A stretch of DNA of 63,901 nucleotides, counting the filler, from an uncultured bacterium (lineage in GTDB: Bacteria; CAZSTA01), in assembly GCA_964609495.1 (NCBI GenBank). It is 3 parts of 3 records of this genome, joined end to end, with 100 filler letters (N's around TTAATTAATTAA, not from the genome) between each part and the next. Parts side by side here need not be neighbours in the genome. Positions count along the whole stretch, not along the records: positions 1 to 23,517 come from CAZSTA010000035.1; 2 more parts are not named here. One strand, given 5' to 3'. The first letter of the stretch is position 1. Each line of letters opens with the position of its first letter. The notes under the pieces were generated by a model, which worked only from the letters and a program-made list of their open reading frames with translations, was not told where the DNA came from and made no database searches. Below are positions 217 to 58,243 of this stretch, piece after piece. Position numbers and translations under genes: made by a program.

Positions 217-1692
217 TTACAGCAATTCCAATATCTCAAAAGGAGGATCCCCCTTACGCTTACGCTCAGCTTTCCTAAACGTCCCCATCCCCTGCCTAGG
301 ATATTCTAGCCGTTTCCCCGCCAGCAGCTCTTCGATGGTGAGAATTTGCAACCGAGGGAAACGACAGTCAGGATACTTTTTAGGTTCGTAAAACCCAGAT
401 GAAACAGCTTCTTCCCGCATTGGCCGGGTTGGTTCTCCCAACGTAATGAAGGCTCCAATCGCCGCTCCTTCCCGCTCTAATACCCCTTTGAGATCCCGTA
501 TCTGACTTACTGTAACGCGACCGCTCTTAACCTGAACGATTACTTTCTTAGCCTTTTTGGTGTCATCATCGAAAAAGTATATGTAACCATCTATGCCTCT
601 ATCAGCACCTTTCTTCTGCTTATCTACTGGTCGGGCGTCGATCAAGCCAAGAGCCCACCATTCAAACTGGTAAGGGCTTTGTTTTGCCAGAGCTTCGGCG
701 CTTCGCAAGTCCTCCGGGTCGCCGATAACCTTATATGGTGACAGATCTGGCCCGAAAGCGTCCTCTAGTCGGTGCTTTATAAGGGTAATAGCCAGGTGAG
801 TGATGTCTATACCTATCCAGTGGCGGTTAAGCCGTTCCGCCATGGCCACCGTGGTGCCACAGCCACAGAAGGGATCGAGGATAATATCCCCTTCATTGCT
901 ACTGGCTTTGATGATACGCTCCAGAAGAGCCTCGGGCTTCTGGGTTGGATAGCCAAGTCGCTCTGCTGGAGATATATGCCCGCCAGACGGAATGTCAACC
1001 CAGAAATCTTCCGGGATCTTCCCCCGCCTCAGGTAATTCTTCCTCGTCTCCTCATCCTGAAGTTTGCCAGTTGTCCCCCAGATCGCCGCCGACCTGCCCT
1101 TATCTGTGTGAAGTTCCCTGTAGGGGATGCGGATCGCCTCGGCGTTGAATGCCCATGTGTCACCCTTTGAGTAGCGAAGTAGCACGTCGTGCTTCTTCGG
1201 GAATGTCTTTGCTGCGCCAGATGGCCCTGTGTAGCACCAAACGATCTCATTCCGAAAGTTTGCCAGTCCAAATACAGCATCCATGAGCAGATTCAGGTAG
1301 TGACTCGCTGTCGGATCACAATGCAGATAGATTGAGCCTGTAGATCTCAGCACCCGATGCAACTCCACTAACCGAATCGCCATCATAACCAGGTAAGCCA
1401 TCATATCATTACTGCCTAAAAACTGGCGCAGTGCCTGCAATAGGTCAGCTACCTTCTTCGGTCCTCGTATTACCACCTCGTGGTAGGTCCCCTCCGCCTT
1501 CATGTCCCAATGCCAAGTATCCTCGAAGGCGGTTATCTGTGCACCATTGGCCTCTTTATAAAGCACGTTATAGCTGGCTTTGGAGTTGAAAGGCGGATCC
1601 AGGTAGATCATGTCCACGCTCTCATCGGCAATATACTCCCTCATTATATCTAAGTTATCTCCAAAGTAGAGTTTGTTCTCCCAATTATCCAT
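217..1692 (-). CDS. Beta-class N6/N4 DNA methyltransferase with C-terminal Mrr-like endonuclease domain
   Basis: DPPF catalytic motif precedes LDPFCGCGTT SAM motif; YPTQKPEALL; C-terminal GADRGIDG...IVQVKSG (Mrr-like PD-(Q)xK); RBS gaggag. Confidence 0.9.
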   Translation of the reverse strand: MDNWENKLYFGDNLDIMREYIADESVDMIYLDPPFNSKASYNVLYKEANGAQITAFEDTWHWDMKAEGTYHEVVIRGPKKVADLLQALRQFLGSNDMMAYLVMMAIRLVELHRVLRSTGSIYLHCDPTASHYLNLLMDAVFGLANFRNEIVWCYTGPSGAAKTFPKKHDVLLRYSKGDTWAFNAEAIRIPYRELHTDKGRSAAIWGTTGKLQDEETRKNYLRRGKIPEDFWVDIPSGGHISPAERLGYPTQKPEALLERIIKASSNEGDIILDPFCGCGTTVAMAERLNRHWIGIDITHLAITLIKHRLEDAFGPDLSPYKVIGDPEDLRSAEALAKQSPYQFEWWALGLIDARPVDKQKKGADRGIDGYIYFFDDDTKKAKKVIVQVKSGRVTVSQIRDLKGVLEREGAAIGAFITLGEPTRPMREEAVSSGFYEPKKYPDCRFPRLQILTIEELLAGKRLEYPRQGMGTFRKAERKRKGDPPFEILELL

Positions 1693-7945: not shown

Positions 7946-8621
7946 AACTCTTCTCTACGTAACTCTAACGCTATTCGCCTTCAGCATAGGAAAGCTCATT
8001 AATCGTAAAACTGGCTCTTTCCTGGCTAATCCTATTTTAATAGCGATAGCTATAGTCATAATAGTGCTTAAACTTCTTCAAGTCAACTATAGCGGATATA
8101 AGCAACACGGTGGAGATCTGATCAGCTTCTTCCTAGGGCCAGCAGTGGTAGCTTTAGGCATACCTCTCTATAAACAGATCAGGATTATATCCAAAAATGT
8201 AAGGGCTATTGCGGTCGGGATAATTGCCGGATGTATAACCGGGATAATAACCGCTGCGGGAGTAGCCAAATTGCTTGCCGCCGAAGGAAGGACGATCTTG
8301 ACCCTAGCTCCAAAATCGGTAACTACTCCCATCGCAATGGGCATAACTGAGAAGTTGGGAGGTATCCCATCTTTAACTGCAGTCGTGGTGATCATCACGG
8401 GGATCTTGGGAGCGCTCTTCGCCCCGGAGATATTAAGGTTGGCAGGGGTAAAGAGTCGTCTAGCTATTGGATTAGCGATAGGAACTGCCTCCCACGTCAT
8501 TGGCACCTCCCGCGCTTTTCAGATAGATGAGTTGGTGGGGGCGGTGAGCGGAATGGCTATCGGGTTGAATGGTATAACAACTGCGATATTAGCCCCTATT
8601 CTGGTTAAGCTATTTCAGTGA
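7932..8621 (+). CDS. lrgB: LrgB/CidB family protein
   Basis: FFLGPAVVALGIPLY, APKSVTTPIAM, GTASHVIGT. Confidence 0.92.
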   Translation: MMSDRTLLYVTLTLFAFSIGKLINRKTGSFLANPILIAIAIVIIVLKLLQVNYSGYKQHGGDLISFFLGPAVVALGIPLYKQIRIISKNVRAIAVGIIAGCITGIITAAGVAKLLAAEGRTILTLAPKSVTTPIAMGITEKLGGIPSLTAVVVIITGILGALFAPEILRLAGVKSRLAIGLAIGTASHVIGTSRAFQIDELVGAVSGMAIGLNGITTAILAPILVKLFQ

Positions 8622-8668
8622 TCGTGACTAAGGTGAGTCCAAGACCTATATATTTAGGAGGTATATGG

Positions 8669-11326
8669 ATGGAAAGTATGAGCAGTAAAGAAGTGAGGGA
8701 GTTATTCCTGAAATTCTTTGAGAGCAAAGGACACAGAAGGTTACCAAGTGCCTCCCTAGTGCCAAATGATCCGACTTTGCTTCTGACTGGAGCGGGAATG
8801 AATCCCTTCAAGAGCTACTTCATCGGGGTGGAGAAGCTCCCAGCCAAACGCGTAGTAACCTGTCAGAAGTGCCTGCGGACTGATGATATAGAGAATGTAG
8901 GAAAGACCGCTACTCATCATACCTTTTTCGAGATGTTGGGTAACTTCTCCTTTGGAGATTACTTCAAGGAGGAAGCTATCACTTGGGGATGGGAGTTCTC
9001 GATAGACTATCTCAAGTTTCCAGAGGATAGAATCTGGATATCGATCTACGAGGATGATGATGAGGCTTTTGAGATATGGAATAAGAAAATAGGTGTGCCA
9101 GCGGAGAAGATCGTTCGCTTGGGCGAAGCGGAGAACTTCTGGCCAGCTAGTGCTCCTAGTAAAGGTCCTAATGGCCCCTGTGGCCCTTGTACCGAGATGT
9201 TCTTCGATATGGGAGAGGAATACGGATGTGGTTCGCCAGATTGTCAACCGGGGTGCGATTGTGAGCGATTCAAGGAGTATTGGAACTTGGTGTTTCAAGT
9301 GTTCGATAGGAAAGATGGGGGAGTATTAGATCCTCTTCCCTTTAAAAATATAGATACCGGTTTAGGATTCGAGAGAGTAGTTTCGATCTTGCAAGGAGGA
9401 AGAACGACCTTTGATACCGATCTATTCCTTCCGATAATACGATATATGAGCCAGTTGTGTAAAAGGAATTATGGAGAAAATCCGCGGGTAGATGCATCCT
9501 TGAAGATAATAGCGGATCATATTAGAGCGATCGCCTTCCTCATCGCCGATGGTGTGACTCCCTCCAATATTGGGAGAGGCTATGTTCTAAGGAGGATACT
9601 CAGGAGAGCGGCGCTTAGGGGAAGAGAATTAGGGATGAGAAAACCGTTTCTGGACAAACTAATCCCAGTGATAGTGAATATGATGGATGACGTCTATCCA
9701 GAGCTTAAAGAGAGGGAGGTCCACATCTGTCGATTGACGAACATCGAGGAGGACAATTTCCTTAGAAAATTGGATACTGGAATAGAAAGGCTAAACGAAC
9801 AAATGAAGATGCTCCGCAGACAAAGGAAAAAGGAGATACCCGGGGAGGTGGCTTTCACCCTCTACGATACCTATGGATTCCCGCTTGATATCACTAAGGA
9901 TATGGCAGAGGATGCGGGCTTCACTGTCGATATAGACGGATTCGAGCAGGAGATGGAGAAACAGAGGGAGAGAGCTAGACAGGCGAGTGAGAGCTTGACG
10001 GGGACTATCTTCTTCCATTCACCTCTTTATGGTGAGATCTTCAAGGCTGTGGGAGAGACGGAATTCCTTGGTTATGAACAACTATCTGCGGAGGGAAAGG
10101 TCAAGGCTATAGTTAAGGATGAAGAATTGGTCAATATAGCTAGAGAAGGAGATGAGGTAGAGATCGTCCTAGATCGGTCTCCCTTCTACGCTGAGGCTGG
10201 AGGGCAACAGGGCGATCGGGGTGAGTTCGTAAGCTCTAAGGCGAAGCTGAAGATCGAGGATACCTATAAGCCAGTGGAGGGATTGATAGTTCATCATGCT
10301 AAGGTAATAGAAGGAGAGATAGAAGTTGAGGATGAGGTCAGAGCCGAGGTCGATTCGGAGAGGAGGTTAGCCTTAGCTCAACATCATACCGCCACTCATT
10401 TACTCCACTCCGCTTTAAAGCAAGTTCTCGGTCCTCATGCGAATCAGTCTGGTTCTCTGGTTGCAGAAGATAGATTACGTTTCGACTTCACCCACTTTGC
10501 CGCCCTATCCGAGGCTGAGCTTCAAGAGGTGGAGCGAATAGCTAACGTCAAGGTGAGGCAGGATATCCCACTTACTAATTATCAATCAAACTATGATGAA
10601 GCTCGCTCTAAGGGAGTGATCGCTCTCTTCGGGGAGAAGTATGGCGATGTGGTGCGGGTGGTCGAGATCGGGGATTTCAGTCAAGAGCTATGTGGTGGGA
10701 CTCATCTTCGCTCTACTGGACAGATCGGACTTATCAAGATCATAAGTGAAGAGAGCATCGGAGCGGGAATAAGGAGGATCGAGGCTCTGGCGGGAGAGGC
10801 GGCTTATAACTATGTAGTGGAGAGGGATAACACCCTCCACAGGATAGAGGGGGAGATTCAAGCGATGCCTCAGGAGGTTGAAGCCCGCGTTGATAGATTG
10901 CTAGCGGAAAATAAAGAACAGTTGAAGCAGATAGAGACTTTAAAGTCCAAGCTCGTCACATCCGAAGTGGATGAGTTAATATCGAAAGCTATTGATATAA
11001 ATGGGATCAAGGCTGTAATCGCCAAAGTCGCCGATCAAGATGCTAAAGGATTAAGGGCGATGGCGGATAGGATAAGGAACAAGCTCAAATCTGGGGTGGC
11101 TATTCTAGCCTCCCCTACTAAAGATGGGCGAATCATCTATGTGGCGATGGTCACTAAGGATCTTACCGATAAAGGATTAAATGCTGGTTCGATCATAGGT
11201 CAAGTTGCTAGGATAGCGTCCGGGGGCGGAGGAGGAAGACCAGAGATGGCTCAAGCTGGTGGCAAGGATTTATCTAAACTAGATGAATCTCTTAAAGAAG
11301 CTGTAAATATAATAAGGATTATCTGA
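8669..11326 (+). CDS. alaS: Alanine--tRNA ligase
   Basis: HHTFFEMLGNFSFGDYFK, IDTGLGFER, editing HTATH and ELCGGTH, GGGGRPEMAQAGG; ATG 8669 after aggagg. Confidence 0.98.
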   Translation: MESMSSKEVRELFLKFFESKGHRRLPSASLVPNDPTLLLTGAGMNPFKSYFIGVEKLPAKRVVTCQKCLRTDDIENVGKTATHHTFFEMLGNFSFGDYFKEEAITWGWEFSIDYLKFPEDRIWISIYEDDDEAFEIWNKKIGVPAEKIVRLGEAENFWPASAPSKGPNGPCGPCTEMFFDMGEEYGCGSPDCQPGCDCERFKEYWNLVFQVFDRKDGGVLDPLPFKNIDTGLGFERVVSILQGGRTTFDTDLFLPIIRYMSQLCKRNYGENPRVDASLKIIADHIRAIAFLIADGVTPSNIGRGYVLRRILRRAALRGRELGMRKPFLDKLIPVIVNMMDDVYPELKEREVHICRLTNIEEDNFLRKLDTGIERLNEQMKMLRRQRKKEIPGEVAFTLYDTYGFPLDITKDMAEDAGFTVDIDGFEQEMEKQRERARQASESLTGTIFFHSPLYGEIFKAVGETEFLGYEQLSAEGKVKAIVKDEELVNIAREGDEVEIVLDRSPFYAEAGGQQGDRGEFVSSKAKLKIEDTYKPVEGLIVHHAKVIEGEIEVEDEVRAEVDSERRLALAQHHTATHLLHSALKQVLGPHANQSGSLVAEDRLRFDFTHFAALSEAELQEVERIANVKVRQDIPLTNYQSNYDEARSKGVIALFGEKYGDVVRVVEIGDFSQELCGGTHLRSTGQIGLIKIISEESIGAGIRRIEALAGEAAYNYVVERDNTLHRIEGEIQAMPQEVEARVDRLLAENKEQLKQIETLKSKLVTSEVDELISKAIDINGIKAVIAKVADQDAKGLRAMADRIRNKLKSGVAILASPTKDGRIIYVAMVTKDLTDKGLNAGSIIGQVARIASGGGGGRPEMAQAGGKDLSKLDESLKEAVNIIRII

Positions 11327-16449: not shown

Positions 16450-18174
16450 ATGCGTCATAAAGAGGATCTAAGACGAAAACTACTTGCTATAGACGGAAGG
16501 GGATATAAGGCTTATAAGGATATAAGAGGGGAATACGATTTCGCTGATTTTCAGTTATTTATAGATCACGTGCAGGGAGACCCCTTTGCCTCTCCCTCTA
16601 TGCTTCGCGCTAGAGTCCCTCAAAAGCTCGCTAACTTTCCTTCGACGCTATTTTCTAATAAGGATAGGAGAATCGCTTGCGAGGATTACCTAATCAGAAC
16701 TTTCGATAAAGCTATCCGCAGGGTAGTAGAGGGGAGAAGAGGATCGGGTAAGAGTGGGCTGATCGCGATAGATCGAGGCGGACAGGAGGTATTGGAGAGA
16801 ACCGCTATGGTAGTTGATAAGGAGATGGTAGAGGCTCGTTTTGTAATGGGACTTCCGGCCGCGGGAAGAAGAGTTTTGGGTAGGCAGGCGATAGATATGT
16901 TCTTCTCGGAACTTCCCCAGATAGTAAAAGAGTCTCTGTTCTATAGAACTTTAGACTCCAGAGATTTAGAAAATTATGTAAACATAGTTGAGGATCAAGC
17001 CTACCTACGTCGTCAACTTCCCAAGAATAAGCTAGTAGCGTTTATAGCTAACAACTCCGTTCTGCCAAGGAGAAGTGGAGTTGATGATCGTCCTCTTCCT
17101 CGCCCTCAAGCGATACCTTTCGTATCTCCACCTGAGCTAGAGGTCACCTTTGAGTTGCCCAATCGAGGCTCGATCTCGGGGATGGGAATCCCTGAGGGGG
17201 TTACTTTGATCGTAGGAGGAGGATATCACGGCAAATCGACTTTGCTCAAGGCTATCGAACGAGGGGTATATAATCACCTACCAGGGGATGGGAGAGAGTT
17301 CGCGGTTGCTATTCCCGAGGCGGTTAAGATCAGAGCTGAGGATGGAAGAAGGGTTGAGAAGGTCAATATAAGTCCCTTTATCCAGAATTTGCCCTATGGC
17401 GAGGATACTTCTCGTTTCTCAACCGATAACGCTAGTGGAAGCACCTCCCAGGCTTCCAATATAATAGAAGCCTTGGAGGTAGGAGCTAAATTGTTGTTGA
17501 TCGATGAGGATACTTCGGCGACCAATTTTATGATCAGGGATGTCCGAATGCAGAAGTTAGTAGCTAGGGATAAGGAGCCGATCACTCCTTTTATCGATAA
17601 GGTAAAGCTTCTCTACAGAGATCTAGGGGTATCGAGCATCATCATCTTAGGAGGCTCTGGGGATTACTTCGATGTAGCTGATACTATACTGATGATGAAC
17701 GAGTATGAACCTTATGAGGTCACCGATAAAGCCAGGGAGATCGCAGAGGAGTATCAAACACATCGGCAGGCAGAAGGAGGAGCTAATTTCGGGGAGGTGA
17801 CTCCTCGCATCCCTATTCCAAATAGTCTTAATCCCAGCAGGGGAAGAAGGGATAAGGTGCAGGCGAAGGGACTCAATACGATCCTCTTTGGGCGAGATGC
17901 TATAGATCTTCAATATGTGCCACAGATAGTCGATTATAGTCAGACTAGAGCTATAGGAAGTGCCATATATTACGCCTTAGATAGATATATAGATGGACAT
18001 AAGGTCCTAAAACAGATAGTTACTGAGATTATGAGTGATATAGAGACAAGGGGATTGGATATCCTATCTCCCTTCAAAGGACAGCATCCGGGAGATTATG
18101 CTAAACCTCGCCCCTTTGAGATCGCCACCGCGATAAATAGACTTAGGACTTTGAGGGTTAAGCAGAAATTATAG
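16450..18174 (+). CDS. Predicted ABC-class ATPase domain protein
   Basis: GGGYHGKST Walker A, LLIDEDTSATNF, VQGDPFASPS; promoter TTGACA-17-TACGAT upstream. Confidence 0.88.
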   Translation: MRHKEDLRRKLLAIDGRGYKAYKDIRGEYDFADFQLFIDHVQGDPFASPSMLRARVPQKLANFPSTLFSNKDRRIACEDYLIRTFDKAIRRVVEGRRGSGKSGLIAIDRGGQEVLERTAMVVDKEMVEARFVMGLPAAGRRVLGRQAIDMFFSELPQIVKESLFYRTLDSRDLENYVNIVEDQAYLRRQLPKNKLVAFIANNSVLPRRSGVDDRPLPRPQAIPFVSPPELEVTFELPNRGSISGMGIPEGVTLIVGGGYHGKSTLLKAIERGVYNHLPGDGREFAVAIPEAVKIRAEDGRRVEKVNISPFIQNLPYGEDTSRFSTDNASGSTSQASNIIEALEVGAKLLLIDEDTSATNFMIRDVRMQKLVARDKEPITPFIDKVKLLYRDLGVSSIIILGGSGDYFDVADTILMMNEYEPYEVTDKAREIAEEYQTHRQAEGGANFGEVTPRIPIPNSLNPSRGRRDKVQAKGLNTILFGRDAIDLQYVPQIVDYSQTRAIGSAIYYALDRYIDGHKVLKQIVTEIMSDIETRGLDILSPFKGQHPGDYAKPRPFEIATAINRLRTLRVKQKL

Positions 18175-18233
18175 GAAGTAGAAGATGAGGAAATCTGTTA
18201 AGATTCCTCTCTTTTTCCAGAGGATTTTATGTA

Positions 18234-18273
18234 AAGGTCGAATAAGTTTATGTAAACTTTTAATAGATCTAAG
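18234..18273 (+). repeat. dif-like site 1 (XerC-like arm, 2-bp centre, XerD arm) within a 40-bp direct repeat
   Basis: aggtcgaataa-gt-ttatgtaaact; arms 9/11 and 10/11 identical to the site at 21589-21616; repeated at 20714-20762. Confidence 0.75.
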
Positions 18274-18310
18274 TCTGATCGGAAAACATATTCCCTGTTC
18301 CTCATCTGTT

Positions 18311-19582
18311 CTAATTTGCTTTATCTGGAGCGGAACGACGAGCGAGTTCCCCCCGCGGCACCTGGAAGTAAGCCCAGAAGAGCAGTGCCCCACCTGCTGT
18401 CAAACCTGCACCTGTCAAGAAGAGGCTACGGTAACCCAGAGCTGTGATCATATAGCCACCCCCGAAAGCCATTGTTGACCAGCTCAGTCCCAATGCCATA
18501 TTGGCAGCGCCAGATATAACCGTCCGCCAGCCCGGAGATACGCTCTCCTGCTGGTAGACAGTGAAAGCCGCGCCTGTGATTGAAGCCAGGGCGAAGATGC
18601 CTATGAAACTGAGACCCGCGGCTTCCCAGTGAGGGATGAGCGCCAGTGGCAGCATGCTGAGAGCCATACCTATCGTCCCCAAAACGACAGTGCGACTCTT
18701 GCCCCAGCGCGCCATCAGGAGAGGTGCGGTTAGGGCTGCCAGCCCAGCCAGCAGTTGGCTAGAGGCCATCAGCGTGCCGATAAGGGATGTGGACACGTGC
18801 AGGCTAGCGTCTAGGTAGACGTTAAAGAAGGTTCGAGTGGCTCCCTCTCCTGCCACCCGGAGCAGCATAACCAATGACATAATAGCAATCAGACCAAAAG
18901 GGGCCCGCCGGCCTATCTCCTCAGCCACAGTTCCCTGTGCCTGTCCAGCACTACCCTCACGCGTGGCTAGCATTGCCAGCACAGCGGGGATGAGCAGCAC
19001 ACCAGTAATCAACAGTGGGTAGCGGTAGGGCGCCGGCTGGTCCAGAGAGACGTCTAGGGTCGTGGCAAAGAGTCTTGGTAGCAGACCACCAACCAGGTTG
19101 CCGGCAAATCCGCCCAGGGGCATAAGCGCCATCTGCACCGAAAAGGCATAATTGCGCTCCTCCAAGCCGGTCGCGCCCATCAAGAACGGGAAGCCGTTGA
19201 CCATGTACAAAGCTGCGCCAAGCCCGCTGAGCGAATAGGTAGTCAACAGCCATACCGATCGCAGTGCAATCGGTATGAACTCGACCAGGGGGGGTAACCC
19301 ATAACCCGCCACCATCAGGCTCAGACCCACGATCATTATGCGACGGCTACCCCAGCGTCGGCCTAGCGCACCAGCAGGTAGGCCAAAGACAGCAAGAGCA
19401 AGTAGAGCAGCCGCGTTGACCAAGCCGATGAATTCTGGACCGTAGCCCAGTCTCAGCAGGTAGAGATTGAACAGCACGACATAGATGCCAAAGTAGCAGA
19501 ACCCATTCAGCGCCGCGGTAATCAGAAGCAAGCGCACGTCACGGCTGAACAGACGCAGAGCGCGCAGATAGGTAGTAATCAT
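18311..19582 (-). CDS. MFS transporter (GC-rich, apparently foreign)
   Basis: 12-TM pattern, GALGRRWGSRR motif A; sampled lines 50-67% GC. Confidence 0.9.
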   Translation of the reverse strand: MITTYLRALRLFSRDVRLLLITAALNGFCYFGIYVVLFNLYLLRLGYGPEFIGLVNAAALLALAVFGLPAGALGRRWGSRRIMIVGLSLMVAGYGLPPLVEFIPIALRSVWLLTTYSLSGLGAALYMVNGFPFLMGATGLEERNYAFSVQMALMPLGGFAGNLVGGLLPRLFATTLDVSLDQPAPYRYPLLITGVLLIPAVLAMLATREGSAGQAQGTVAEEIGRRAPFGLIAIMSLVMLLRVAGEGATRTFFNVYLDASLHVSTSLIGTLMASSQLLAGLAALTAPLLMARWGKSRTVVLGTIGMALSMLPLALIPHWEAAGLSFIGIFALASITGAAFTVYQQESVSPGWRTVISGAANMALGLSWSTMAFGGGYMITALGYRSLFLTGAGLTAGGALLFWAYFQVPRGELARRSAPDKAN

Positions 19583-19685
19583 CTCAGAACCTCCTTTTTA
19601 GAGTAGATTGTCGGAGATTAAATTATACACCTTTGGAATCTACTGAAAATGATATATCTGCTAAGCACGATGAAGTCAAGAGAAT

Positions 19686-19838
19686 AAAAAAACACCACCC
19701 GCGAATATAGCGGTGGCTGGTTTCACTATTGGCTAACTTATAGTCCAAGTAACCACATACAGGCTATAGGCTTATCGCCACCTGGATAGATATTTATTCG
19801 TCTATTTGTATTATACTTCAATTAAAGCTCAGCGTCAA
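19686..19838 (-). promoter_or_regulatory. Promoter plus ~120-nt structured transcript with intrinsic terminator (sRNA or attenuator)
   Basis: TTGACG(19833-38)-17-TATAAT(19810-15); terminator ccaccgc...gcgggtgg followed by a T-tract; alternative pairing ggtggc/gccacc. Confidence 0.6.
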
Positions 19839-19909
19839 GTATGTGAGAATTATTTAACACAAAAAATTATCACGCTAGTTTATCCATAGCGTTTCATCAA
19901 CTCTTTAAT

Positions 19910-19926
19910 TTATGTAAACTTAATAG
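19910..19926 (+). repeat. dif-like site 2 (XerD arm only)
   Basis: ttatgtaaact followed by taatag, as at sites 1 and 3. Confidence 0.55.
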
Positions 19927-20085
19927 CTGATAGCCTAGTTATTCTCTACTTGAGATAAGGTAAAAAAAGTCCGATAAGTCCTCTACTAAGTAAATCTTAA
20001 TATATACTTGACGGCACCTACTCGATATGATATACTATAAGCAATTCTTTACCCTTAGCGGTGGCCAAAGGGAGGTCTATAAAAG

Positions 20086-20568
20086 ATGAGATTGCTTAAA
20101 GTAACTGCGATAGTATTAGCTCTGGTATTGATAATATTCATAGCTGGATGTGAAAAAGGTGGTGGTGAAACACCTAAGAAAACTCCACTTCCCGCCCCAT
20201 TCCCGTTGGTATATCAAGATAGTATAGTGAAAATTAGTTTGACTGATGGCTACACAATTGACAAAATAAAGGATTATCCCCTAAAAGAGGGAAGATACTT
20301 TGTGGTTTTGGAGCTATCGGTAGAATGCCTCTCTGATTCCTTCTCTACGTTTTTCTTTGACATAATTGATAGCCAAGACCGTGTTTATAAAGCTTCTGCT
20401 GCTACAAATGAACTTGATCAGCCAATATCATTTTTGACTCTATATCCAGGAGATAAGACAGAGGGAGGAATAGCTTTTGAGGTGCTCAAAGATGCCACGG
20501 GATTAAAGCTTAGATGCAGAGAGTATCACTACTTTCAAGATCCTATATTGTTCGACTTAGGCATATAA
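20086..20568 (+). CDS. Lipoprotein, DUF4352-like
   Basis: Lipobox IAGC; LYPGDKTEGGIAFEV motif; own promoter TTGACG-17-TATACT and RBS ggagg. Confidence 0.78.
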   Translation: MRLLKVTAIVLALVLIIFIAGCEKGGGETPKKTPLPAPFPLVYQDSIVKISLTDGYTIDKIKDYPLKEGRYFVVLELSVECLSDSFSTFFFDIIDSQDRVYKASAATNELDQPISFLTLYPGDKTEGGIAFEVLKDATGLKLRCREYHYFQDPILFDLGI

Positions 20569-20713
20569 ATAGTCTCTAAGTGGGATTATTCGGGATTGCT
20601 GACGTTAGAACCAGAAGGTGAGCTGAGCAATTGGAGGAATCTCATGGCAGCTATGTCATCCTTAGGAAAGAATCTAGTAGATTAATAAACAGGCTACTTC
20701 AACGCCCTTATTG

Positions 20714-20762
20714 AAGGTCAGATAAGTTAGATAAGTTTATGTAAACTTTGAATAGATCTAAG
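20714..20762 (+). repeat. dif-like site 3 (40-bp repeat with internal 9-bp duplication)
   Basis: aaggtcagataagttagataagtttatgtaaactttgaatagatctaag. Confidence 0.75.
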
Positions 20763-20804
20763 CTATAAATTTTGGGCTAAGGGATTTTAGAGGAGGATTA
20801 TTTA

Positions 20805-21566
20805 ATGTTTTCAAATGATGAATTATTCAGTTTTTTAATTAAGGGAACAGAGCGACCTTTCTCAGGATGGGATTTTTCATATATTGAAAAAACTAGAAGA
20901 ATGGTAGAAGCTCCTTTAAGCTGGAGTTATGCAAGTAAGATACTAATGAAAATAAGAAAGGTAGAATCATTACTTGATATGGGGACCGGTGGTGGTGAAT
21001 TTTTATCAATGTTACAGCCATTACCGAAAAACACCTATGCTACTGAAGGATATAAACCAAATGTTCCGATTGCCAGAGAGAGATTAGAACCTATTGGTGT
21101 AGAGGTAATTGAGATTAATGATGACGATAATTTACCATTTGATAATAATTATTTTGAATTGGTAATTAATCGGCATTCATCATATTCACCCCAGGAAGTT
21201 AATAGAATTCTTAAACCAAATAGTTACTTTATTACCCAGCAGGTTGGTGGACTTAATAATATAGAATTAAATAGGCTACTAGGAGCAAAAGTATATAATG
21301 AATGGAAATATTGGAATCTATCCAATGCAGTAAAAGAATTAGAAGAGACAGGAATGAAAGCTATTGGAAAAGAGGAGGACTCCTATCCCACTCGCATTTA
21401 CGATGTAGGAGCTGTAGTTTATTATCTTAAAGCTATACCTTGGCAAATACCAGATTTTACAGTTGAAAAATACTTCGATCCACTCAAAAAGATATATAAT
21501 AAGATTCAGAAAGACGGATATATTGATATAGGAAGCCATAGATTTTTAATAATTGCCCAAAAATAA
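20805..21566 (+). CDS. Class I SAM-dependent methyltransferase (AT-rich, apparently foreign)
   Basis: LLDMGTGGGE, LPFDNNYFELVINRH, TQQVG; sampled lines 23-33% GC. Confidence 0.9.
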   Translation: MFSNDELFSFLIKGTERPFSGWDFSYIEKTRRMVEAPLSWSYASKILMKIRKVESLLDMGTGGGEFLSMLQPLPKNTYATEGYKPNVPIARERLEPIGVEVIEINDDDNLPFDNNYFELVINRHSSYSPQEVNRILKPNSYFITQQVGGLNNIELNRLLGAKVYNEWKYWNLSNAVKELEETGMKAIGKEEDSYPTRIYDVGAVVYYLKAIPWQIPDFTVEKYFDPLKKIYNKIQKDGYIDIGSHRFLIIAQK

Positions 21567-21588
21567 GAGAGATTGTGAGAGATATATA

Positions 21589-21616
21589 AAGTCGCATAAG
21601 ATATCTTATGTTAACT
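21589..21616 (+). other. Canonical dif site (XerC/XerD recombination site)
   Basis: aagtcgcataa-gatatc-ttatgttaact, the 11-6-11 layout of E. coli dif (GGTGCGCATAA-TGTATA-TTATGTTAAAT). Confidence 0.85.
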
Positions 21617-21722
21617 TTAAGGCGAATTGGATATTTGAGTACAATAACTTCTGAAACTTCTGATTTTGATATACTAAATCGCAGAGGTTAATCCTTGATC
21701 CTATTAAGAGGAGGAACTATTA

Positions 21723-21950
21723 ATGGAGGCTAAACATAAGATCTATAATTTTATTGTCTTGATCGAACAAGATGAGGATGGCTACTATGTAGCGACTGTC
21801 CCTGCTCTTAAAAGTTGCTATACCCAAGCTAAGACCCTAGAGGAACTATATCCGAGGATCAAAGAGGTAATTGAACTCTGCCTTGAGGAAGAAGAACCGC
21901 TCTCGTTAAAGTTTATTGGAGTTCATCAAGTTGAGATCGAAGCTGATTGA
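21723..21950 (+). CDS. hicB: HicB-family antitoxin (no adjacent hicA)
   Basis: IEQDEDGYYVATVPALKSCYTQAKTLEEL...IKEVIELCLE; RBS gaggagg. Confidence 0.88.
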   Translation: MEAKHKIYNFIVLIEQDEDGYYVATVPALKSCYTQAKTLEELYPRIKEVIELCLEEEEPLSLKFIGVHQVEIEAD

Positions 21951-22120
21951 ATTTCTTAAAGGAAAGATTTTCTCGATTGGTATTTGAAAAAGTAGCAATT
22001 ATGATAATCAGATCTGTATTAACTTTAAAAAATTTAGCTCACTCCTTGACAGTTTAAGAGGATTATGATATTATAAAGTATCATTAGGAAGTCAAATAAG
22101 GAAAGGAAGCTGTTGAATAG

Positions 22121-23311
22121 ATGAAGGTAGTTCTAGCTTACTCAGGAGGTTTAGATACCTCGGTATGTATAAAGTGGCTACAGGAGGAGTATAAGGCAGA
22201 TGTAATAACCTTTACTGCTGATCTAGGACAAGGCGATCTTCACATAGAGGATCTTAAAAGTAGAGCTCTTATTATAGGAGCAAGTCAAGTTTACATAAAT
22301 GATGTAAAAGAGGAATTCGCCAGAGATTATGTGCTTCCCACTCTCCAAGCAGGAGCAGCTTATGAGGGAAAATATCTGCTAGCTACTGCCTTGTCAAGGC
22401 CGCTAATCGCCACTAAGTTGGTGGAGATCGCCCATCGTGAGAAAGCTGATGCGGTAGCGCATGGTTGCACCGGCAAAGGGAACGATCAGGTGCGCTTTGA
22501 AGTGACAGTGATGGCACTCGATCCCAAGCTAAAAGTGATAGCTCCTCTGCGAGAGTGGACGATGAAATCTCGTGAGGGAGAGATAGAATACGCTAAAGCC
22601 CATAATATCCCAATCACAAGCACCAAAGCTAAGCCCTATAGCTATGATCGTAACCTTTGGCATCTAAGTGCTGAAGCAGGTGTTTTAGAGGATCCATGGG
22701 TTGAGCCCCCTGAAGATGTCTATCAACTCACCGTATCTCCTGAGAAAGCTCCTGACAATCCCACCTATATAGAAATAGAGTTCGAAAGAGGAGTCCCGAA
22801 GAAGCTGGATGGTGAGGATATCCCCTTAGTCCCTCTCATCGAAAAGCTCAACGAACTCGGAGGGAAAAACGGGATAGGCCGCGTGGACATGGTCGAGAAT
22901 AGATTAGTAGGGATCAAATCCCGCGAGATATACGAATGTCCAGCGGCAACTATTCTCTATACTGCTCATCAAGCTTTGGAGACACTTACCCTGGATAGAG
23001 GGACAATGCATTTCAAACAGGAAGTCGCAGGTAGATATGCAGAGCTGGTTTATTACGGTCTTTGGTATTCTCCTCTAAAGAAAGCCCTAGATGAGTTTGT
23101 AAAAGTTACTCAACAAAATATTACCGGGACTATTCGCTTGAAATTATATAAAGGCAATTGCCTAGTGGTGGGGAGGAAATCCCCTCTATCGTTATATGAC
23201 TACTCCTTAGCTACTTACGATGAGGCTGATATCTTTGATCACCGTTCTGCTAAGGGATTCATTCAGCTATGGGGTTTACCCCTAAAGGTAGCCTCATCAA
23301 TTGGGAAATAG
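22121..23311 (+). CDS. argG: Argininosuccinate synthase
   Basis: AYSGGLDTS, HGCTGKGNDQVRF, ENRLVGIKSREIYE. Confidence 0.98.
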   Translation: MKVVLAYSGGLDTSVCIKWLQEEYKADVITFTADLGQGDLHIEDLKSRALIIGASQVYINDVKEEFARDYVLPTLQAGAAYEGKYLLATALSRPLIATKLVEIAHREKADAVAHGCTGKGNDQVRFEVTVMALDPKLKVIAPLREWTMKSREGEIEYAKAHNIPITSTKAKPYSYDRNLWHLSAEAGVLEDPWVEPPEDVYQLTVSPEKAPDNPTYIEIEFERGVPKKLDGEDIPLVPLIEKLNELGGKNGIGRVDMVENRLVGIKSREIYECPAATILYTAHQALETLTLDRGTMHFKQEVAGRYAELVYYGLWYSPLKKALDEFVKVTQQNITGTIRLKLYKGNCLVVGRKSPLSLYDYSLATYDEADIFDHRSAKGFIQLWGLPLKVASSIGK

Positions 23312-23517: not shown

Positions 23518-23617
23518 NNNNNNNNNNNNNNNNNNNNNNNNNNNNNNNNNNNNNNNNNNNNTTAATTAATTAANNNNNNNNNNNNNNNNNNNNNNNNNNN
23601 NNNNNNNNNNNNNNNNN
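23518..23617. other. Assembly gap with artificial linker
   Basis: N-run containing TTAATTAATTAA. Confidence 0.97.
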
Positions 23618-47005: not shown

Positions 47006-47105
47006 NNNNNNNNNNNNNNNNNNNNNNNNNNNNNNNNNNNNNNNNNNNNTTAATTAATTAANNNNNNNNNNNNNNNNNNNNNNNNNNNNNNNNNNNNNNN
47101 NNNNN
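47006..47105. other. Assembly gap with artificial linker
   Basis: N-run containing TTAATTAATTAA. Confidence 0.97.
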
Positions 47106-47297
47106 GTTCATGTAGCCTTTAATCAACTCCTGCTCTATCTCCTCGCGAAGCTTTCTGTTCTCCCTAAGCAGAGCTAGAAATTCCCGCATCAATCCGTCCC
47201 GTTTTTCCTTGAGGAGGCGGTATCCTCTCTTAGCCACTATAACCCTCTTCTTCAGATTGAGGAGCTCCATCCGCGTCGGATTAATATTTAACCTCAT
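47106..47297 (-). CDS. ntpD: V/A-type ATPase subunit D, 5' part
   Basis: [10 protein letters not shown]...[13 protein letters not shown]. Confidence 0.92.
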
Positions 47298-47315
47298 TTC
47301 ATCATTCCCCTCGTC

Positions 47316-48707
47316 TTAAGTTACCCTTGCCTCCTTCTCTTTGTGTAGATATCGCTTGATGTATTCATCACTCACCCGCTTTAACTCCGAGGTGGGTAGT
47401 ATCGCCAATAGCTTCCAGCCAATATCCAGCGTCTCTTCGATCGATCTATCCTCATATTCTCCTTGTCGAACGAACTTATCCTCGAACTCATCGGCGAATT
47501 TGGAGTAGAGCCTATCAACCTCGGAGAGCGCGGCCTCCCCCAAGATCACCGCTAGTTCCTTAACCTCTTTGCCCCGAGCATAGGCGGCGAAGAGTTGATT
47601 CATAAGGCCAGGATGATCCTCGCGAGTCTTACCAGAGCCGATTCCCTTATCCTTTAGACGCGACAGGGAGGGCAAAACATCTATCGGCGGATAGATACCT
47701 TTATGGTGCATCTCTCTAGTTACGAAGATCTGCCCCTCCGTTATATACCCTGTCAGATCAACGATAGGATGCGTTTTGTCATCCTCGGGCATAGTTAGGA
47801 TCGGTATCTGGGTTATGGAGCCCTTCTTACCTTTGATCCTTCCCGCTCGTTCGAACATCGTAGCTAAGTCAGTGTATAGATAACCGGGATACCCCCTCCG
47901 TCCAGGAATCTCCCGGCGAGCGGCGGATACCTCCCGCAAAGCCTCACAGTAGTTAGTCATATCAGTTAAGATGACGAGGACATGCGTATCATGTTCAAAG
48001 GCTAGATATTCAGCCGCGGTAAGCGCCAGGCGAGGAGTAGTTATTCTCTCTACCGCGGGATCATTAGCTAAGTTTACGAAGAGCACCGCCCTTTCAATAG
48101 CGCCAGTGTTACGGAAGTCGGTGATGAAGTAATTCGCCTCCTCAAAGGTGATGCCCATCGCGGCGAAGACGACTGCGAACTCCTCCTCCACTCCTAATAC
48201 TCTAGCTTGTCTAGCGATCTGGGCCGCGATGCGGTTATGGGGCAACCCAGAGCCTGAGAAGAGGGGTAGCTTCTGTCCACGCACTAATGTATTTAAGCCA
48301 TCTATGGCGGAGATCCCGGTCTGGATGAACTCGGAGGGATAATCCCTACTATAGGGATTGATCGGACTACCGTTGATATCGAGTCTCTCCTCGGGGATGA
48401 TCGCTGGTCCATCATCTATAGGTTGGCCAGAACCGTTGAAGATACGTCCTAATATATCCATAGAGACCGGTAACTCTAATCCTCTCCCTAAGAATCTCAC
48501 CTTACAGCCATCGACATCCAACCCGCGCGCTTCCTCGAATAACTGCACTAGAGCGGCTTCGGTGGTGATCTCCAGCACTCGTCCTCTTCTCACTTCCCCA
48601 TCGTCAAGCTCGATCTCCACCAGTTCATCGAACTTCACACCCTCGATCCCCTCTATTACCATTATGGGACCTGCTATTTCGGAAATATTCAAATACTCTC
48701 TGAGCAT
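47316..48707 (-). CDS. ntpB: V/A-type ATPase subunit B
   Basis: [40 protein letters not shown]; start placed at ATG 48707. Confidence 0.97.
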
Positions 48708-48769
48708 CTTTCCATCCTCTAAATAAAATTTTCCTTTATTTAAGATATTCTCTACTTCTGTCACAAATG

Positions 48770-50563
48770 TTAATCCTGTTCACCAGCTTTTTGTATCTGT
48801 TCATCTATCCTCTCTTCAATCGCGGAGAACTGTTCTAATTTATCATCGTCTATATACTTCATCCTAGCGATCTCTTCTCTTACCGGAAGATTTATAATAT
48901 CTCTGATTCTTATTCCCTTCTCCAGAGCCTCCAAGGCTCTGTTATGAAAGTGAAGTATTGTTTTGAGCATTCTGTATTGCTTATTCTGAGAGGTATAAGT
49001 GTCCTTCTCGTGGAATGCGTACTGATGAAGGAAATCCTCCCGGATCGATCTAGCCGTCTCCATAACCAAACGCTCCCTATCGGATAGAGCCTCAATACCA
49101 ACCAGACGCACGATCTCCTCCAACTCCGCTTCCTCTTGCAGAATCGCCATAGCTTTATTTCTCAAATCGGGCAGATCCTCGGCGATGTGGGTTTGGATAT
49201 AGTCTCTGACACTATCAAGATACAGCGAATAGCTATTAAGCCAGTTGATGGCCGGGAAGTGTCTGCTATAGGCTAACCTATCTTCCAGTCCCCAGAAGAC
49301 TTTTACCACTCGTAGGGTGTTCTGAACAACCGGGTCAGATAGGTCTCCCCCAGGAGGTGAAACCGCCCCGATAACGGATAGAGAGCCCTCTCGACCATCG
49401 CTTCCCATACAGATGACCCTTCCCGCTCGTTCGTAGAAATCAGCGATTCTAGATCCCAGATAGGCAGGATATCCTTCCTCACCAGGCATCTCCTCCAAAC
49501 GACCGGAGATCTCCCGCATAGCCTCTGCCCATCGGGAGGTAGAGTCCGCCATCACCGCGATGTCATATCCCATATCCCTATAATATTCGGCGATAGTAAT
49601 ACCAGTATATACGGAGGCCTCCCGAGCCGCCACTGGCATATTTGAGGTGTTGGCGATGAGCACCGTTCGTTTAATCAAAGGCTCGTCAGTTCGAGGGTCC
49701 AGCAATTCGGGGAATTCCATCAGAACATCTGTCATCTCGTTCCCTCGCTCACCACAACCGATATAGACGATTATATCTGCATCCACCCACTTAGCTAATT
49801 GGTGCTGAACGACCGTCTTACCACTTCCAAAGGGACCGGGAATACAGGCTGTCCCTCCCTTCGCTATGGGGAAGAAGGTGTCTATAACCCTCTGACCAGT
49901 TATCAGAGGCACAAATGGGGGCAATTGACGCTGGAAGGGCCTGCCCCTTCGCACCGGCCACTCCCTGAGCATCTTTATCTCGTGAACCGTTCCCTCGGGG
50001 CTCCTCACCGTAGCGATTACATCTTCTACGGTGAACTCCCCTTCCTCGAGGCTTTCCAGTCTCCCCTCTATTCCTTCAGGAACCATTATCTTATGTAAAA
50101 CAACCTCGGATTCCCTAACTACCCCTATGATATCACCTGCCTGAACTGTATCTCCTACCTTGAATTGAGCCTTGAAATCCCCACTTCCATCCTCGGCTTG
50201 GGGACCGAAATACCACTTTCTCTTCCTATCAATTCCGGGAATGTCAACGCCTCTAGTTATATAATCGCCCACTTGCGATCTAATTATATCGAGCGGTCTC
50301 TGAATCCCATCGTAGATCGAGGTTATAAGTCCTGGAGCTAACTCCACGCTCAAGGGCATTCCCGTGGAGATGACAGGCTCTCCAGGTCCTAAGCCCGAGG
50401 TCTCCTCATAAACCTGGATCGTGGCTTCATCTCCCCGAAGCTCTATGATCTCCCCTATGAGCTGTTTCTCACTAACCCGAGCCACATCGAACATCTTAGC
50501 ATTTTCAATTCCCTTGGCAACGACAACTGGTCCAGAAACCTTGATTATCCTACCTTCCTTCAT
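48770..50563 (-). CDS. ntpA: V/A-type ATPase subunit A
   Basis: [27 protein letters not shown]; no intein. Confidence 0.97.
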
Positions 50564-50635
50564 CCGAAATTACCTCCTGCTAGCCCTCTCTAAATCGAAA
50601 CTTATGGGGAGTATCTCTTCATCCTCTTCTGAGAA

Positions 50636-50658
50636 TCGGCTGCGGTGACGTGTTAGGC
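50636..50658 (-). other. Half attC-like site (R'' and L''-like boxes)
   Basis: GCCTAACACGTCACCGCAGCCGA, 12 nt after the stop codon of the RibD-C gene. Confidence 0.55.
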
Positions 50659-50670
50659 TATGATTTGCTC

Positions 50671-51432
50671 TCACTCTGGAACGACCTGATAGCGGAGCCA
50701 TACATGCCCCTCAGCCTGAACTTGGACGGAAATCAGTTTTAGCCGCGTTGGCCACTCGTCAGGTTTTAACTCTGGTGAGTCAAACAGCGATGGCGTCTCT
50801 AGGCCACCTATTATGGCCGGAAAGAACACAATGTTGATTTCGTCTATAAGCCCAGCACGCAAGAGCGCGCCGTTCAACTTGCCTCCAGCTGTTGATATTA
50901 CACACGTAACTCCCAACTGAGATCCCAGTTTCTCCATAGCAAGGTGGAGATCAACTCGCCCTTCCCCTGCTATCAAGTAGGGAATATTTTCGCGCTGGAG
51001 ATAGGCTAGATACTCGGGTGGCGTATGGTGGGCTACTAAGACCAGCAGATGCCATCCCTCCCATCCCTCTTCTGGCCATTCCTTGTAAACCCATCGGACG
51101 CGTCCTCGACTATCCACGACCGTGAACCATCCCCGATGTCCCGGACGATGGACGACAGCGTGTGGCAAGAAGTCCTGATATAGCGACTTAGGATCACCGG
51201 TGACAGGCGGGAGAGGCTTGGGAGTCTCGTTGCTCTTAACAAGAGAGCCACTGCCTTCAAGAGTGGCTTGTGGTTGGTGGGTGAACTTGAGCCACTCGAA
51301 TACGTCAAAATTGCTTGATCCCGCGACAGCCTGCCATCTTTCGTCCCCGTATAGCAAAAGGACGTCGGGCGCAAGCGTTACCCTCCCATCTACTGAAGCA
51401 GTCGTTTGGATTACTACTCGTGGTCTGCCCAT
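50671..51432 (-). CDS. RibD C-terminal/dihydrofolate reductase-like protein inserted in the ATPase operon
   Basis: ASVDGRV, VVDSRGR, GGKLNGALLRAGLIDE, WLRY. Confidence 0.88.
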   Translation of the reverse strand: MGRPRVVIQTTASVDGRVTLAPDVLLLYGDERWQAVAGSSNFDVFEWLKFTHQPQATLEGSGSLVKSNETPKPLPPVTGDPKSLYQDFLPHAVVHRPGHRGWFTVVDSRGRVRWVYKEWPEEGWEGWHLLVLVAHHTPPEYLAYLQRENIPYLIAGEGRVDLHLAMEKLGSQLGVTCVISTAGGKLNGALLRAGLIDEINIVFFPAIIGGLETPSLFDSPELKPDEWPTRLKLISVQVQAEGHVWLRYQVVPE

Positions 51433-51456
51433 AAGCGCTTTCCCCCTTCACGACCT

Positions 51457-51780
51457 CTATTCCTCATCCCTGAATATGATATCCGAGCCGACTGCTCTCT
51501 CTACCATCCTCTTCATCCTCTGCCTACCTATTCCCAAGCTACCCTGGTTGTTGGGGATAGGAATTATCGCTGGAAGTGTGGCTTCTTCGTCTAGTTCTAA
51601 ATCATCCATAACCGAGTAGAACTGCTCAGTGATCAGGATAGCTATATAGCTTCGATCTTTCAGCAATTCCTTCATCCTGTCGAGTGCCTCACCTTTGGTC
51701 TGGACTGGAAAGATATTTCCTCCCACCCCTTTAAAACCAAGGAGAGAGGCGCGATCTCCCACTACCGCCAATTTAGACAT
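51457..51780 (-). CDS. V/A-type ATPase subunit F
   Basis: AVVGD..S.LGF, PAIIPIP, VERAVGSDI. Confidence 0.92.
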   Translation of the reverse strand: MSKLAVVGDRASLLGFKGVGGNIFPVQTKGEALDRMKELLKDRSYIAILITEQFYSVMDDLELDEEATLPAIIPIPNNQGSLGIGRQRMKRMVERAVGSDIIFRDEE

Positions 51781-52789: not shown

Positions 52790-52827
52790 CTTTCCCCTTA
52801 ACCTTTCTGCTGCTCCGACGATCTAGA

Positions 52828-53424
52828 TCATTCGAAGAGGATATCGGCTACCGATGATTCTAGTGGCTCTTTGAGGTTAGAAATGATAATATTAAAGGAA
52901 TTATTGATCTGAACTCCTTTGCCTCGCAGGATAAAGCCCCCCTTTATCCTATCATCCGGAGGACCGAACTTTAATTCTCCCTTTTTACCCCTTTTCTTCA
53001 ACTCCTCGTTGATCTTGTTCAGGAACTCGTCGGATATCCTATCTTTGTCCTCCGGGGAGATGATCACCGTCTCGTCTCCCTTCACCGAACTATTCAAGAA
53101 CATATTCTGAAGCAAGTTTTGATAGTCCTTATTGGGCAGTCTCATCAAAGTGAGAAGTGCCTTCTGAAAAGCTTCCTCTATCAGTCTCCTCTTCAGGCTT
53201 AAGATATCCATAGAGATCGCAGTTCTAACCTTAGCCAATTCCTTCCTCTTGAGATCATCCGCTCGAGTGCGAGCTTTTCTTATCTCCTCAGTTCGATAGG
53301 AAGAGATATCCCTCCTTCCCCTCTCCGCTATCTTCCCTGCTTGCCGATCTGCCTCCTCTTTTATCCTCTTCGCCTCCAGTCGAGCCTCTTCCCTTATCGC
53401 CTCAGTTATCTTAGAAAGCGCCAT
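52828..53424 (-). CDS. ntpE: V/A-type ATPase subunit E
   Basis: N-terminal coiled coil, IKGGFIL, INNSF; operon position. Confidence 0.9.
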   Translation of the reverse strand: MALSKITEAIREEARLEAKRIKEEADRQAGKIAERGRRDISSYRTEEIRKARTRADDLKRKELAKVRTAISMDILSLKRRLIEEAFQKALLTLMRLPNKDYQNLLQNMFLNSSVKGDETVIISPEDKDRISDEFLNKINEELKKRGKKGELKFGPPDDRIKGGFILRGKGVQINNSFNIIISNLKEPLESSVADILFE

Positions 53425-53444
53425 CTCTTCACCTTTCCTCTTCT

Positions 53445-53948: not shown

Positions 53949-53963
53949 TAATTTTCCCCCTTA

Positions 53964-58239: not shown

Positions 58240-58243
58240 CTAT

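Follow-up and report, generated by a model that had tools for sequence, protein, structure and literature searches.

Do arms of the recombinase XerD that recur in one orientation between unrelated genes make a gene-cassette system? The question is raised by a locus of an uncultured bacterium (GCA_964609495.1) in which three genes lie between an ABC_ATPase-class gene and argG, bordered by XerD-type arms and followed by a complete Xer site. A first-pass annotation of this DNA had proposed an undescribed chromosomal platform that stockpiles single-gene cassettes by means of the host Xer recombinases. We examined the locus within a window of 63,901 bases (the whole stretch of DNA analysed), which is made up of three contigs of a metagenome-assembled genome (MAG; positions 1-23517, 23618-47005 and 47106-63901); the lengths of 23,517 and 23,388 recorded for contigs that encode its proteins agree with this. 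The contigs are joined by N spacers, so that skew or distance arguments across the joins are meaningless. The locus is on contig 1, with its complete Xer site 1.9 kb from the contig end. We find that the structure is real and unusual. Our preferred reading, to which we give a probability of about 40%, is an islet of foreign genes next to a Xer site, with borders made of inert scars that derive from dif and still have intact XerD arms.

Fragments of Xer sites between the ATPase gene and argG

The XerD-arm pattern TTATGTWAACT is matched exactly six times in the window, whereas 100 dinucleotide-preserving shuffles average 0.06 and none of them reaches six. Five of the matches read TTATGTAAACT and one reads TTATGTTAACT; the 12-mer TTATGTWAACTT is common to all six. 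The arms at 18248, 19910 and 20737 (TTATGTAAACT, +), which belong to what we call sites 1, 2 and 3, and the arm at 21606 (TTATGTTAACT, +) are all co-oriented and stand at exactly the coordinates that the first-pass annotation had given. It had omitted two further arms, at 22288 (-) and 56721 (+), as well as a repeat shared by sites 1 and 3 (31/32). The fifth arm (22288-22298, -) is an exact XerD arm inside the argG coding sequence, complementary to site 2 at 14 of 14 positions. The sixth (56721-56731, +) is on contig 3, where a V-type ATPase operon and a PHP-domain gene, with priA, def and fmt nearby, flank the core intergenic region that holds it. Neither of these two arms is a border of the gene units described below, and given 0.06 expected the Poisson probability of two extra arms is ~0.002.

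The arm at 21606 is part of the complete Xer site (21589-21616, +), which reads AAGTCGCATAA-GATATC-TTATGTTAACT and has a 6-bp centre and a 16-bp perfect inner palindrome; a complete site, which had been described at this arm as a full dif, is indeed present. It is the sole good match to a generic 28-bp dif pattern in the window, the other match having three mismatches. Both XerD-arm variants recur in the dif sites of three Bacillota genomes (G003, G004 and G005), which have a left arm of the ACTTC(C/T)TATAA type. Within the window, the layout CATAA-N5-6-TTATG is unique to the complete site; the arms at 18248, 19910, 20737, 22288 and 56721 lack it. Judged by its letters, the complete site would suit dif and the published layout of XerD-bound dif-like sites (XDS, discussed below) equally well. 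Motifs of the FtsK-orienting polar sequence (KOPS) and SpoIIIE recognition sequence (SRS) types are too few on contig 1 to orient it.

Sites 1 to 3 are built differently. Site 1 (18234-18273, +) is a pseudo-dif in which a XerC-like arm, AGGTCGAATAA, is followed after a 2-bp gap, GT, by a perfect XerD arm (18248-18258); the XerC-arm core GTCGAATAA is at 18237. A terminator scan places a terminator-like hairpin (18205-18224, +) after the ATPase gene, and the T-tail of this hairpin runs into a degenerate arm copy, TTATGTAAAGG (18227-18237, +), that matches at 9 of 11 positions. Site 3 (20714-20762, +; XerD arm 20737-20747) is a second pseudo-dif, the same as site 1 plus a perfect 9-bp tandem duplication of AGATAAGTT (20720-20728 and 20729-20737) before the XerD arm, and it shows the XerC-arm core pattern as GTCAGATAA at 20717. 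The two pseudo-dif sites have a 32-nt repeat in common (18242-18273 and 20731-20762) that is identical at 31 of 32 positions. AAGGTC..ATAAG precedes the repeat at both sites, the sequence past the arm is identical for 16 nt, and the longest exact stretches do not exceed 19 nt. With the upstream AAGGTC..ATAAG included, MAFFT matches both arms of sites 1 and 3 to those of the complete site and leaves a four-column central gap. Site 2 (19910-19920, +) is a perfect XerD arm with no XerC-like arm, and has in common with sites 1 and 3 just the 13-mer TTTATGTAAACTT plus the following AATAG.

The distance between the XerC-like arm and the XerD arm is 2 bp in site 1 and either 2 bp or 11 bp in site 3. 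A XerC-type arm at a spacing of 6-8 bp is missing from all three upstream sites; at 6-bp spacing, the left-arm positions of sites 1, 2 and 3 read GTAAAGGTCGA, TTCATCAACTC and AGATAAGTTAG, unlike the AAGTCGCATAA of the complete site. Since site 3 differs from site 1 by the tandem duplication, the 2-bp spacing predates the copying. Central regions of known Xer sites measure 6-8 bp, or 11 bp for XerS, in the section of PMC5357621 that treats them, and the values of 2 and 11 bp found here argue against activity. On established biochemistry, sites 1-3 are predicted not to be substrates for canonical XerC/XerD exchange. One half of the proposed Xer cassette platform is supported, namely probably foreign genes bounded by co-oriented arms, and the other half, arms that serve as working recombination sites, is not supported (0/3 with a XerC-type arm at 6-8 bp). 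A cassette system takes more than XerD arms in one orientation.

Pieces of the XerC half are also over-represented. The XerC-arm core GTCRVATAA has nine matches in the window against 2.32 expected, a number reached by none of 100 shuffles, and five of the nine fall within 18.2-22.1 kb, ~6% of the window: three before arms, one inverted in the gene of a MFS transporter and one just before argG. The enrichment of arms together with that of XerC cores means that fragments of both Xer-site halves are concentrated at the locus. Weak dif-derived fragments were also found at 22013-22099 (+), consisting of an arm-like stretch at ~22013-22025, in a weak MAFFT alignment, and the core GTCAAATAA at 22091-22099. 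An exact copy of the complete site's own XerC-arm core, GTCGCATAA, stands inverted in the GC-rich MFS coding sequence (19336-19344, -) and may be chance.

Origin and stability of the enclosed genes

The left flank of the interval is the ABC_ATPase-class gene (16450-18174, +; PF09818/PF20446/PF21117, Pfam E 8e-131), whose GC content at third codon positions (GC3) is 0.442, and the right flank is argG, for argininosuccinate synthase (22121-23311, +; Pfam). Between them, on the XerC-arm side of the window's sole complete Xer site, each arm-bounded interval holds one gene. Unit 1 is the MFS transporter (18311-19582, -; PF07690 (MFS_1), E 1.5e-33; GC 0.58, GC3 0.627), unit 2 a DUF4352 lipoprotein (20086-20568, +; PF11611, E 2.6e-7; GC3 0.323) and unit 3 a class I S-adenosylmethionine (SAM)-dependent methyltransferase (20805-21566, +; PF08241 (Methyltransf_11); GC 0.324, GC3 0.224). 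Past the complete site there is a HicB-like small protein (21723-21950, +; PF15919, 29.9 bits). These Pfam assignments agree with the gene calls of the first-pass annotation (ATPase, MFS, DUF4352, methyltransferase, HicB and argG), which had also described hicB as an orphan. No HicA partner is recognisable: the 36-codon open reading frame (ORF) that follows has no HicA match, and a hicA remnant after hicB was rejected on this ground.

Across 48 ORFs, GC3 averages 0.478 with a standard deviation of 0.072. The MFS gene has the highest value, the methyltransferase the lowest and the lipoprotein the second lowest, in agreement with the earlier description of these genes as unrelated; HicB, argG and the ATPase are of ordinary composition. 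Along the locus, GC runs from ~0.44 through ~0.60 to ~0.33. The three enclosed genes deviate in composition, and in different ways, which makes them probably foreign. Their foreign origin from different donors is well supported, and a recent transfer is not supported. The best homologues of the MFS transporter reach 71% identity and come from metagenomes throughout, one of them being named, as Chloroflexota. Those of the methyltransferase are at most 66% identical and spread over many phyla, and the family is patchy, occurring in 15 of 401 Bacillota genomes sampled. The first-pass annotation had proposed to look for distant best homologues and for dif-like flanks in the donors. The 66-71% identity of the best homologues weighs against a working platform, as does the lack of a XerD arm within ~1.5 kb of the methyltransferase homologues in all 15 loci.

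The MFS gene has a leader (19706-19838, -) with a promoter-like site at 19838-19810 (11/12) and a c-di-GMP-II-like aptamer at 19790-19706. The aptamer match (RF01786) covers the full-length model at 28.5 bits, which is below the gathering threshold of 53.5, with an E of 0.00036 for a 361-nt search. It retains many conserved loop nucleotides and is followed by a hairpin with a T-run, read by eye (19684-19838, -). The leader could be a variant riboswitch that controls the transporter. The lipoprotein gene has its own promoter-like site at 20008-20036 (10/12 with TG). The Rfam scan of 17900-22300 contained no attC-like family, just this riboswitch-like match and a chance microRNA match.

No integrase, transposase, resolvase, phage or plasmid family was found among the 53 window proteins scanned, as the first-pass annotation had noted for integrase, phage and plasmid genes, nor are there tRNA genes in the window, which ruled out a tRNA-type att site as the source of the direct repeats. 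At 90% identity, the six genes of the ATPase-argG interval are alone among ~15 billion proteins, save for one ATPase from the Joint Genome Institute (JGI); the ATPase orthologue P0002, from a JGI metagenome, is 94% identical. The repeat pattern was found in no viral contig and in one metagenome contig (L054), which was rejected as a related locus: it has no DNA or protein in common with ours, and its second arm lies inside an ORF and was taken as chance. A phage DNA search with the locus gave no match, and the plasmid DNA search matched just distant methyltransferase genes on three Bacillaceae plasmids.

The organism was found in salt-marsh and marsh metagenomes of 2019 and 2025 at 2-6x depth. 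Contigs of X5 (19815-20120) and X6 (19760-19967), from 2019 and 2025 runs, bridge site 2, and an X2 contig bridges site 1, as inferred from variant and gap tables; X1 covers all 30 depth bins. Single-nucleotide polymorphisms (SNPs) inside the MFS and lipoprotein genes are common to X5 and X6, and units 1 and 2 must therefore be present in two strains or more. No independent contig among those listed bridges site 3 or reaches at least 31 nt past the complete site, and the uncovered stretches in X5 and X6 (20678-21949) are not interpretable. No alternative junction was seen at the locus in the contigs of four runs (2-6x), and contigs drop rare variants. The evidence is for a locus that is stable at the level of the dominant genotype only.

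In the collections searched, the host has no close relative. The best matches of its alanyl-tRNA synthetase (AlaRS) in 5.8 billion protein clusters are 50-52% identical, the named ones being Armatimonadota and Bacillota MAGs. Among 53 loci of the ABC-class ATPase (one genome per species), all are at most 64% identical save one partial match at 70%, and none of the other nine neighbourhood genes is present in any of them. Identities of at most 52% for AlaRS and at most 64% for the ATPase suggest a poorly sampled deep lineage.

Other observations in the window concern DNA away from the locus. The gene content of the organism (8618-11326 and whole window) includes the V-type ATPase operon, a Ser/Thr kinase with HEAT repeats and a PEGA-TPR-AhpC protein. 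At 217-1692 (-), an N6/N4 DNA methylase domain is fused to a Mrr-type restriction endonuclease domain, and the fusion looks like a single-chain restriction-modification enzyme. A dispersed motif, AACTCCCTAGCKAA, has three copies against 0.08 expected (23629, 23767 and 56672, all +). The copies are all in AT-rich intergenic stretches with promoter-like spacing, and one precedes the XerD arm of contig 3 by 35 nt. The N spacers (23518-23617 and 47006-47105) contain the linker TTAATTAATTAA, and an aminotransferase-like ORF is cut at 23517.

Scars, binding sites or cassettes

In the reading that we prefer, foreign DNA would have come in through recombination at the Xer site or next to it, and dif-like sequence would have been duplicated at the borders in the style of integrative mobile elements exploiting Xer (IMEX). 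The extra sites would then have lost either a usable central region, by a collapse from 6 to 2 bp, or the XerC arm. Disabled in this way, they would stop deletion by XerC/XerD between the direct repeats, and the genes would be fixed. A disabled site could subsequently have been copied by gene conversion, homologous recombination or another enzyme. The XerD arms remain letter-perfect, most likely, we infer, since XerD still binds them. A Xer-mediated origin, present inertness and XerD binding are what this reading would add to the observations, which are the repeat anatomy, the foreign composition, the non-canonical sites 1-3 and the recurrence of the junctions at sites 1 and 2 in several samples. 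If it is true, the locus records the fixation of insertions, with the centre of an extra Xer site collapsing and the XerD arm surviving, in a lineage that has no cultured or sequenced close relative.

Several points weigh against these steps. Canonical Xer would have been unable to copy a site with 2-bp spacing. The attachment sites of every IMEX described conserve the XerC arm and the centre and diverge on the XerD side, and the locus shows the reverse. A simple insertion at dif predicts an intact host XerC arm at 6 bp at the leftmost junction, which is not what site 1 has. Three letter-perfect copies of TTTATGTAAACTT in otherwise different flanks suggest selection, not decay, and the two exact arms off the unit borders, in argG and on contig 3, would suit XerD binding better. 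Site 3 is bridged by no independent contig among those listed, and no empty site was seen; the ATPase loci of one genome per species are at most 64% identical, save the partial match at 70%.

It is possible, if somewhat doubtful, that XerD binding is in fact the whole function of the arms. They would then be XerD-only binding sites of the XDS kind, the complete site would be dif or a full XDS, and the foreign genes would be incidental cargo of the terminus; selection would operate, at the same tentative level, because XerD bound at the terminus unloads SMC or organises the dif region. XDS reportedly occur in the terminus of Bacillus subtilis and Staphylococcus aureus, a result said to come from Karaboja et al. 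in 2021. The passages of PMC9226527 that deal with them describe dif-like sites near the terminus that are bound by XerD independently of XerC and unload SMC complexes, with a layout in which a bona fide XerD arm is separated by 5-6 bp from an inverted copy of its five innermost bases. The complete site (21589-21616) matches this description exactly. The five other arms are letter-perfect, with the 12-mer in all six, and two stand where a unit border is impossible or not apparent, an excess for which the Poisson probability was ~0.002. Conversely, the inverted CATAA at a distance of 5-6 bp is missing from sites 1-3 and from the arms at 22288 and 56721. Sites 1 and 3 are alike for 16 nt past the arm and both have a XerC-like arm, which points to common descent, not convergence, and binding sites of this kind would leave both that descent over ~45 bp and the local pile-up of XerC cores unexplained. 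The arms also fall at the borders of the three genes that deviate most in composition.

Distant relatives give a divided answer on the same point. We inspected dif in distant Bacillota genomes to which the ATPase loci led. Two of them, G005 and G037, have a co-oriented XerD arm that lacks a canonical partner and stands on the XerC side of dif, at a distance of 395 and 286 bp, respectively. The hairpin that contains this half-site is 90% conserved over 48 nt (L056 5600-5647 in G005 and L080 2320-2366 in G037). It is terminator-like, with an exact XerD arm in the loop and 3' stem; the neighbouring gene is ~65% identical, and the DNA between half-site and dif is unrelated. The hairpin may be a conserved XerD half-site beside dif, which would favour a binding role. 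Against that role, two of four genomes have no half-site in the dif stretch seen (none in ~1.5 kb of G036, none in ~400 bp to the contig end of G038), and genome-wide arm counts against a reversed-pattern control in four genomes were 7/0, 6/3, 11/8 and 6/8, so that arm enrichment is not general. Other candidates were set aside: a half-site of G004, which overlaps a promoter 1.5 kb from dif, is probably chance, as conservation does not extend to G006, a relative of 80% identity, and the arm matches of G001 and G002 lie in a conserved coding region. If the arms of our locus are XerD landing sites, XDS-like sites reach well beyond Bacillus and Staphylococcus, and some XDS may originate as scars of dif duplications.

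The scar reading must also be weighed against an active platform, in which host Xer excises and inserts single-gene circles at co-oriented arms in the manner of an integron without integrase. Such a platform would account for the co-oriented sites, the one gene per interval, the unrelated compositions and the lack of an integrase in the window, and the integration of a circle would leave a duplication such as the 32-45 bp one that flanks units 1+2. Chromosomal arrays of modules bounded by Xer sites have also been reported in Acinetobacter, in the part of PMC12907356 that describes them. We nevertheless regard it as quite unlikely, given that 0/3 upstream sites have a XerC-type arm at 6-8 bp and that no unit has a copy at ≥90% identity elsewhere. 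The 15 methyltransferase homologue loci are without an arm, the repeat pattern recurs in no viral and one unrelated metagenome contig, and the four runs gave no alternative junction, though contigs hide rare variants. Even on Acinetobacter plasmids, cassettes with complete Xer sites proved not to be excisable in the tests recounted in an excerpt of PMC11705084. Were the arms active after all, they would represent a new site grammar for Xer-driven gene capture.

It is conceivable, although unlikely, that the half-sites and spacer-collapsed repeats mark a capture hotspot beside dif, where single-gene modules of unrelated donors would be exchanged at the 13-45 bp XerD-arm repeats by XerD with a non-canonical partner or mechanism. 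If true, this would be a Xer-linked cassette system outside Proteobacteria in which the XerD arm is kept and the XerC arm dispensable, opposite to known IMEX. Recognition of the 13-45 bp repeats by something other than Xer is decidedly improbable; the candidates would be a serine recombinase acting on AAGTTTA-TG-TAAACTT, an integrase encoded elsewhere, or a transcription factor. Sites 1 and 3 do hold an inverted repeat of 7-2-7 form without mismatches, and site 2 one of 9-2-9 form with a single mismatch; for serine recombinases, a centre of 2 bp would be suitable. Recombinase genes were not found in the window, however, and the arm exactly matches the XerD arm in the dif sites of Bacillota relatives, adjoins a complete Xer site and has flanks that align to that site on both sides. 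As operators the repeats would be inconsistently placed, site 1 lying between convergent gene ends and site 3 lying 57 nt before a start codon. An assembly artefact, that is, a chimeric MAG contig joined at short repeats, would explain the GC jumps (~0.44 to ~0.60 to ~0.33), and site 3 has no independent bridging contig among those listed. We consider a chimera hardly credible, since X5 and X6 bridge site 2 and X2, by inference, bridges site 1 in other samples and years, since exact repeats of at most 19 nt are short for assembler k-mers, and since X1 covers all 30 depth bins.

Comparison with known systems

Regions next to dif are known entry points for DNA without an integrase, and the documented cases are phages, large islands and Acinetobacter modules with complete sites. 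The claim of an undescribed system does not survive this comparison: a chromosomal Xer-module island is already in print, in the part of PMC12907356 that presents it, so the concept itself is not undescribed. Among the papers listed in a limited literature search on Xer-linked arrays and modules, no title or abstract describes single foreign genes bordered by rows of Xer sites that are spacer-collapsed or XerD-only.

Integrons resemble the locus in having one gene per interval, co-oriented repeats that look like recombination sites and genes of unrelated origins. They differ from it in that the window has no IntI-type integrase and 17900-22300 no attC-like Rfam family, and in that units 1 and 2 have promoter-like sites of their own, with one gene on the opposite strand. 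With XDS, which are known here through citing descriptions, the locus has in common several perfect XerD arms without a XerC partner near a Xer site, an arrangement for which recombination is not needed. In contrast to XDS, 5/6 arms lack the inverted five-base partner, two arms belong to a longer dif-like repeat with a XerC-like arm, and three are within 2.5 kb at the borders of foreign genes.

Acinetobacter pdif/dif modules, like the units of the locus, are small, each holding a single accessory gene or a handful, and are arranged in a row with internal Xer-type sites in common. As far as the module sections of PMC12907356 and PMC11705084 go, they often carry toxin-antitoxin or transporter genes and include chromosomal dif module islands; the former describes complete 28-bp sites that alternate between C/D and D/C and modules that recur at >99% identity on other replicons. 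Our locus, by comparison, has one complete site in four, all in direct orientation, and no unit that recurs elsewhere, and its host is a member of a deep-branching uncultured lineage, not a proteobacterium.

The closest likeness is to IMEX arrays, such as the Vibrio TLC/CTX/VGJ phages, the gonococcal genetic island (GGI) and the Enterobacter IMEX. They too are foreign DNA at a chromosomal Xer site without an integrase of its own, and their co-oriented dif-like flanks and several insertions in a row are likewise seen at the locus. In the pages of PMC5357621 devoted to them, the attachment sites of CTX, VGJ, TLC and the GGI keep the XerC arm and the central region and have a divergent XerD side, and the degeneracy of one flanking site keeps the GGI in place. 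The locus differs in keeping the XerD arm perfect and losing the XerC arm or the spacing, in having units of 0.8-1.7 kb that are single genes with no replication, transfer or phage functions, and in that no polymorphism or donor copy was found for it (90% clusters; contigs of four runs). Taken together, these analogies suggest that the locus would work most like an IMEX array with locked junctions; it appears superficially similar to an Acinetobacter dif-module island, and is probably a member of neither.

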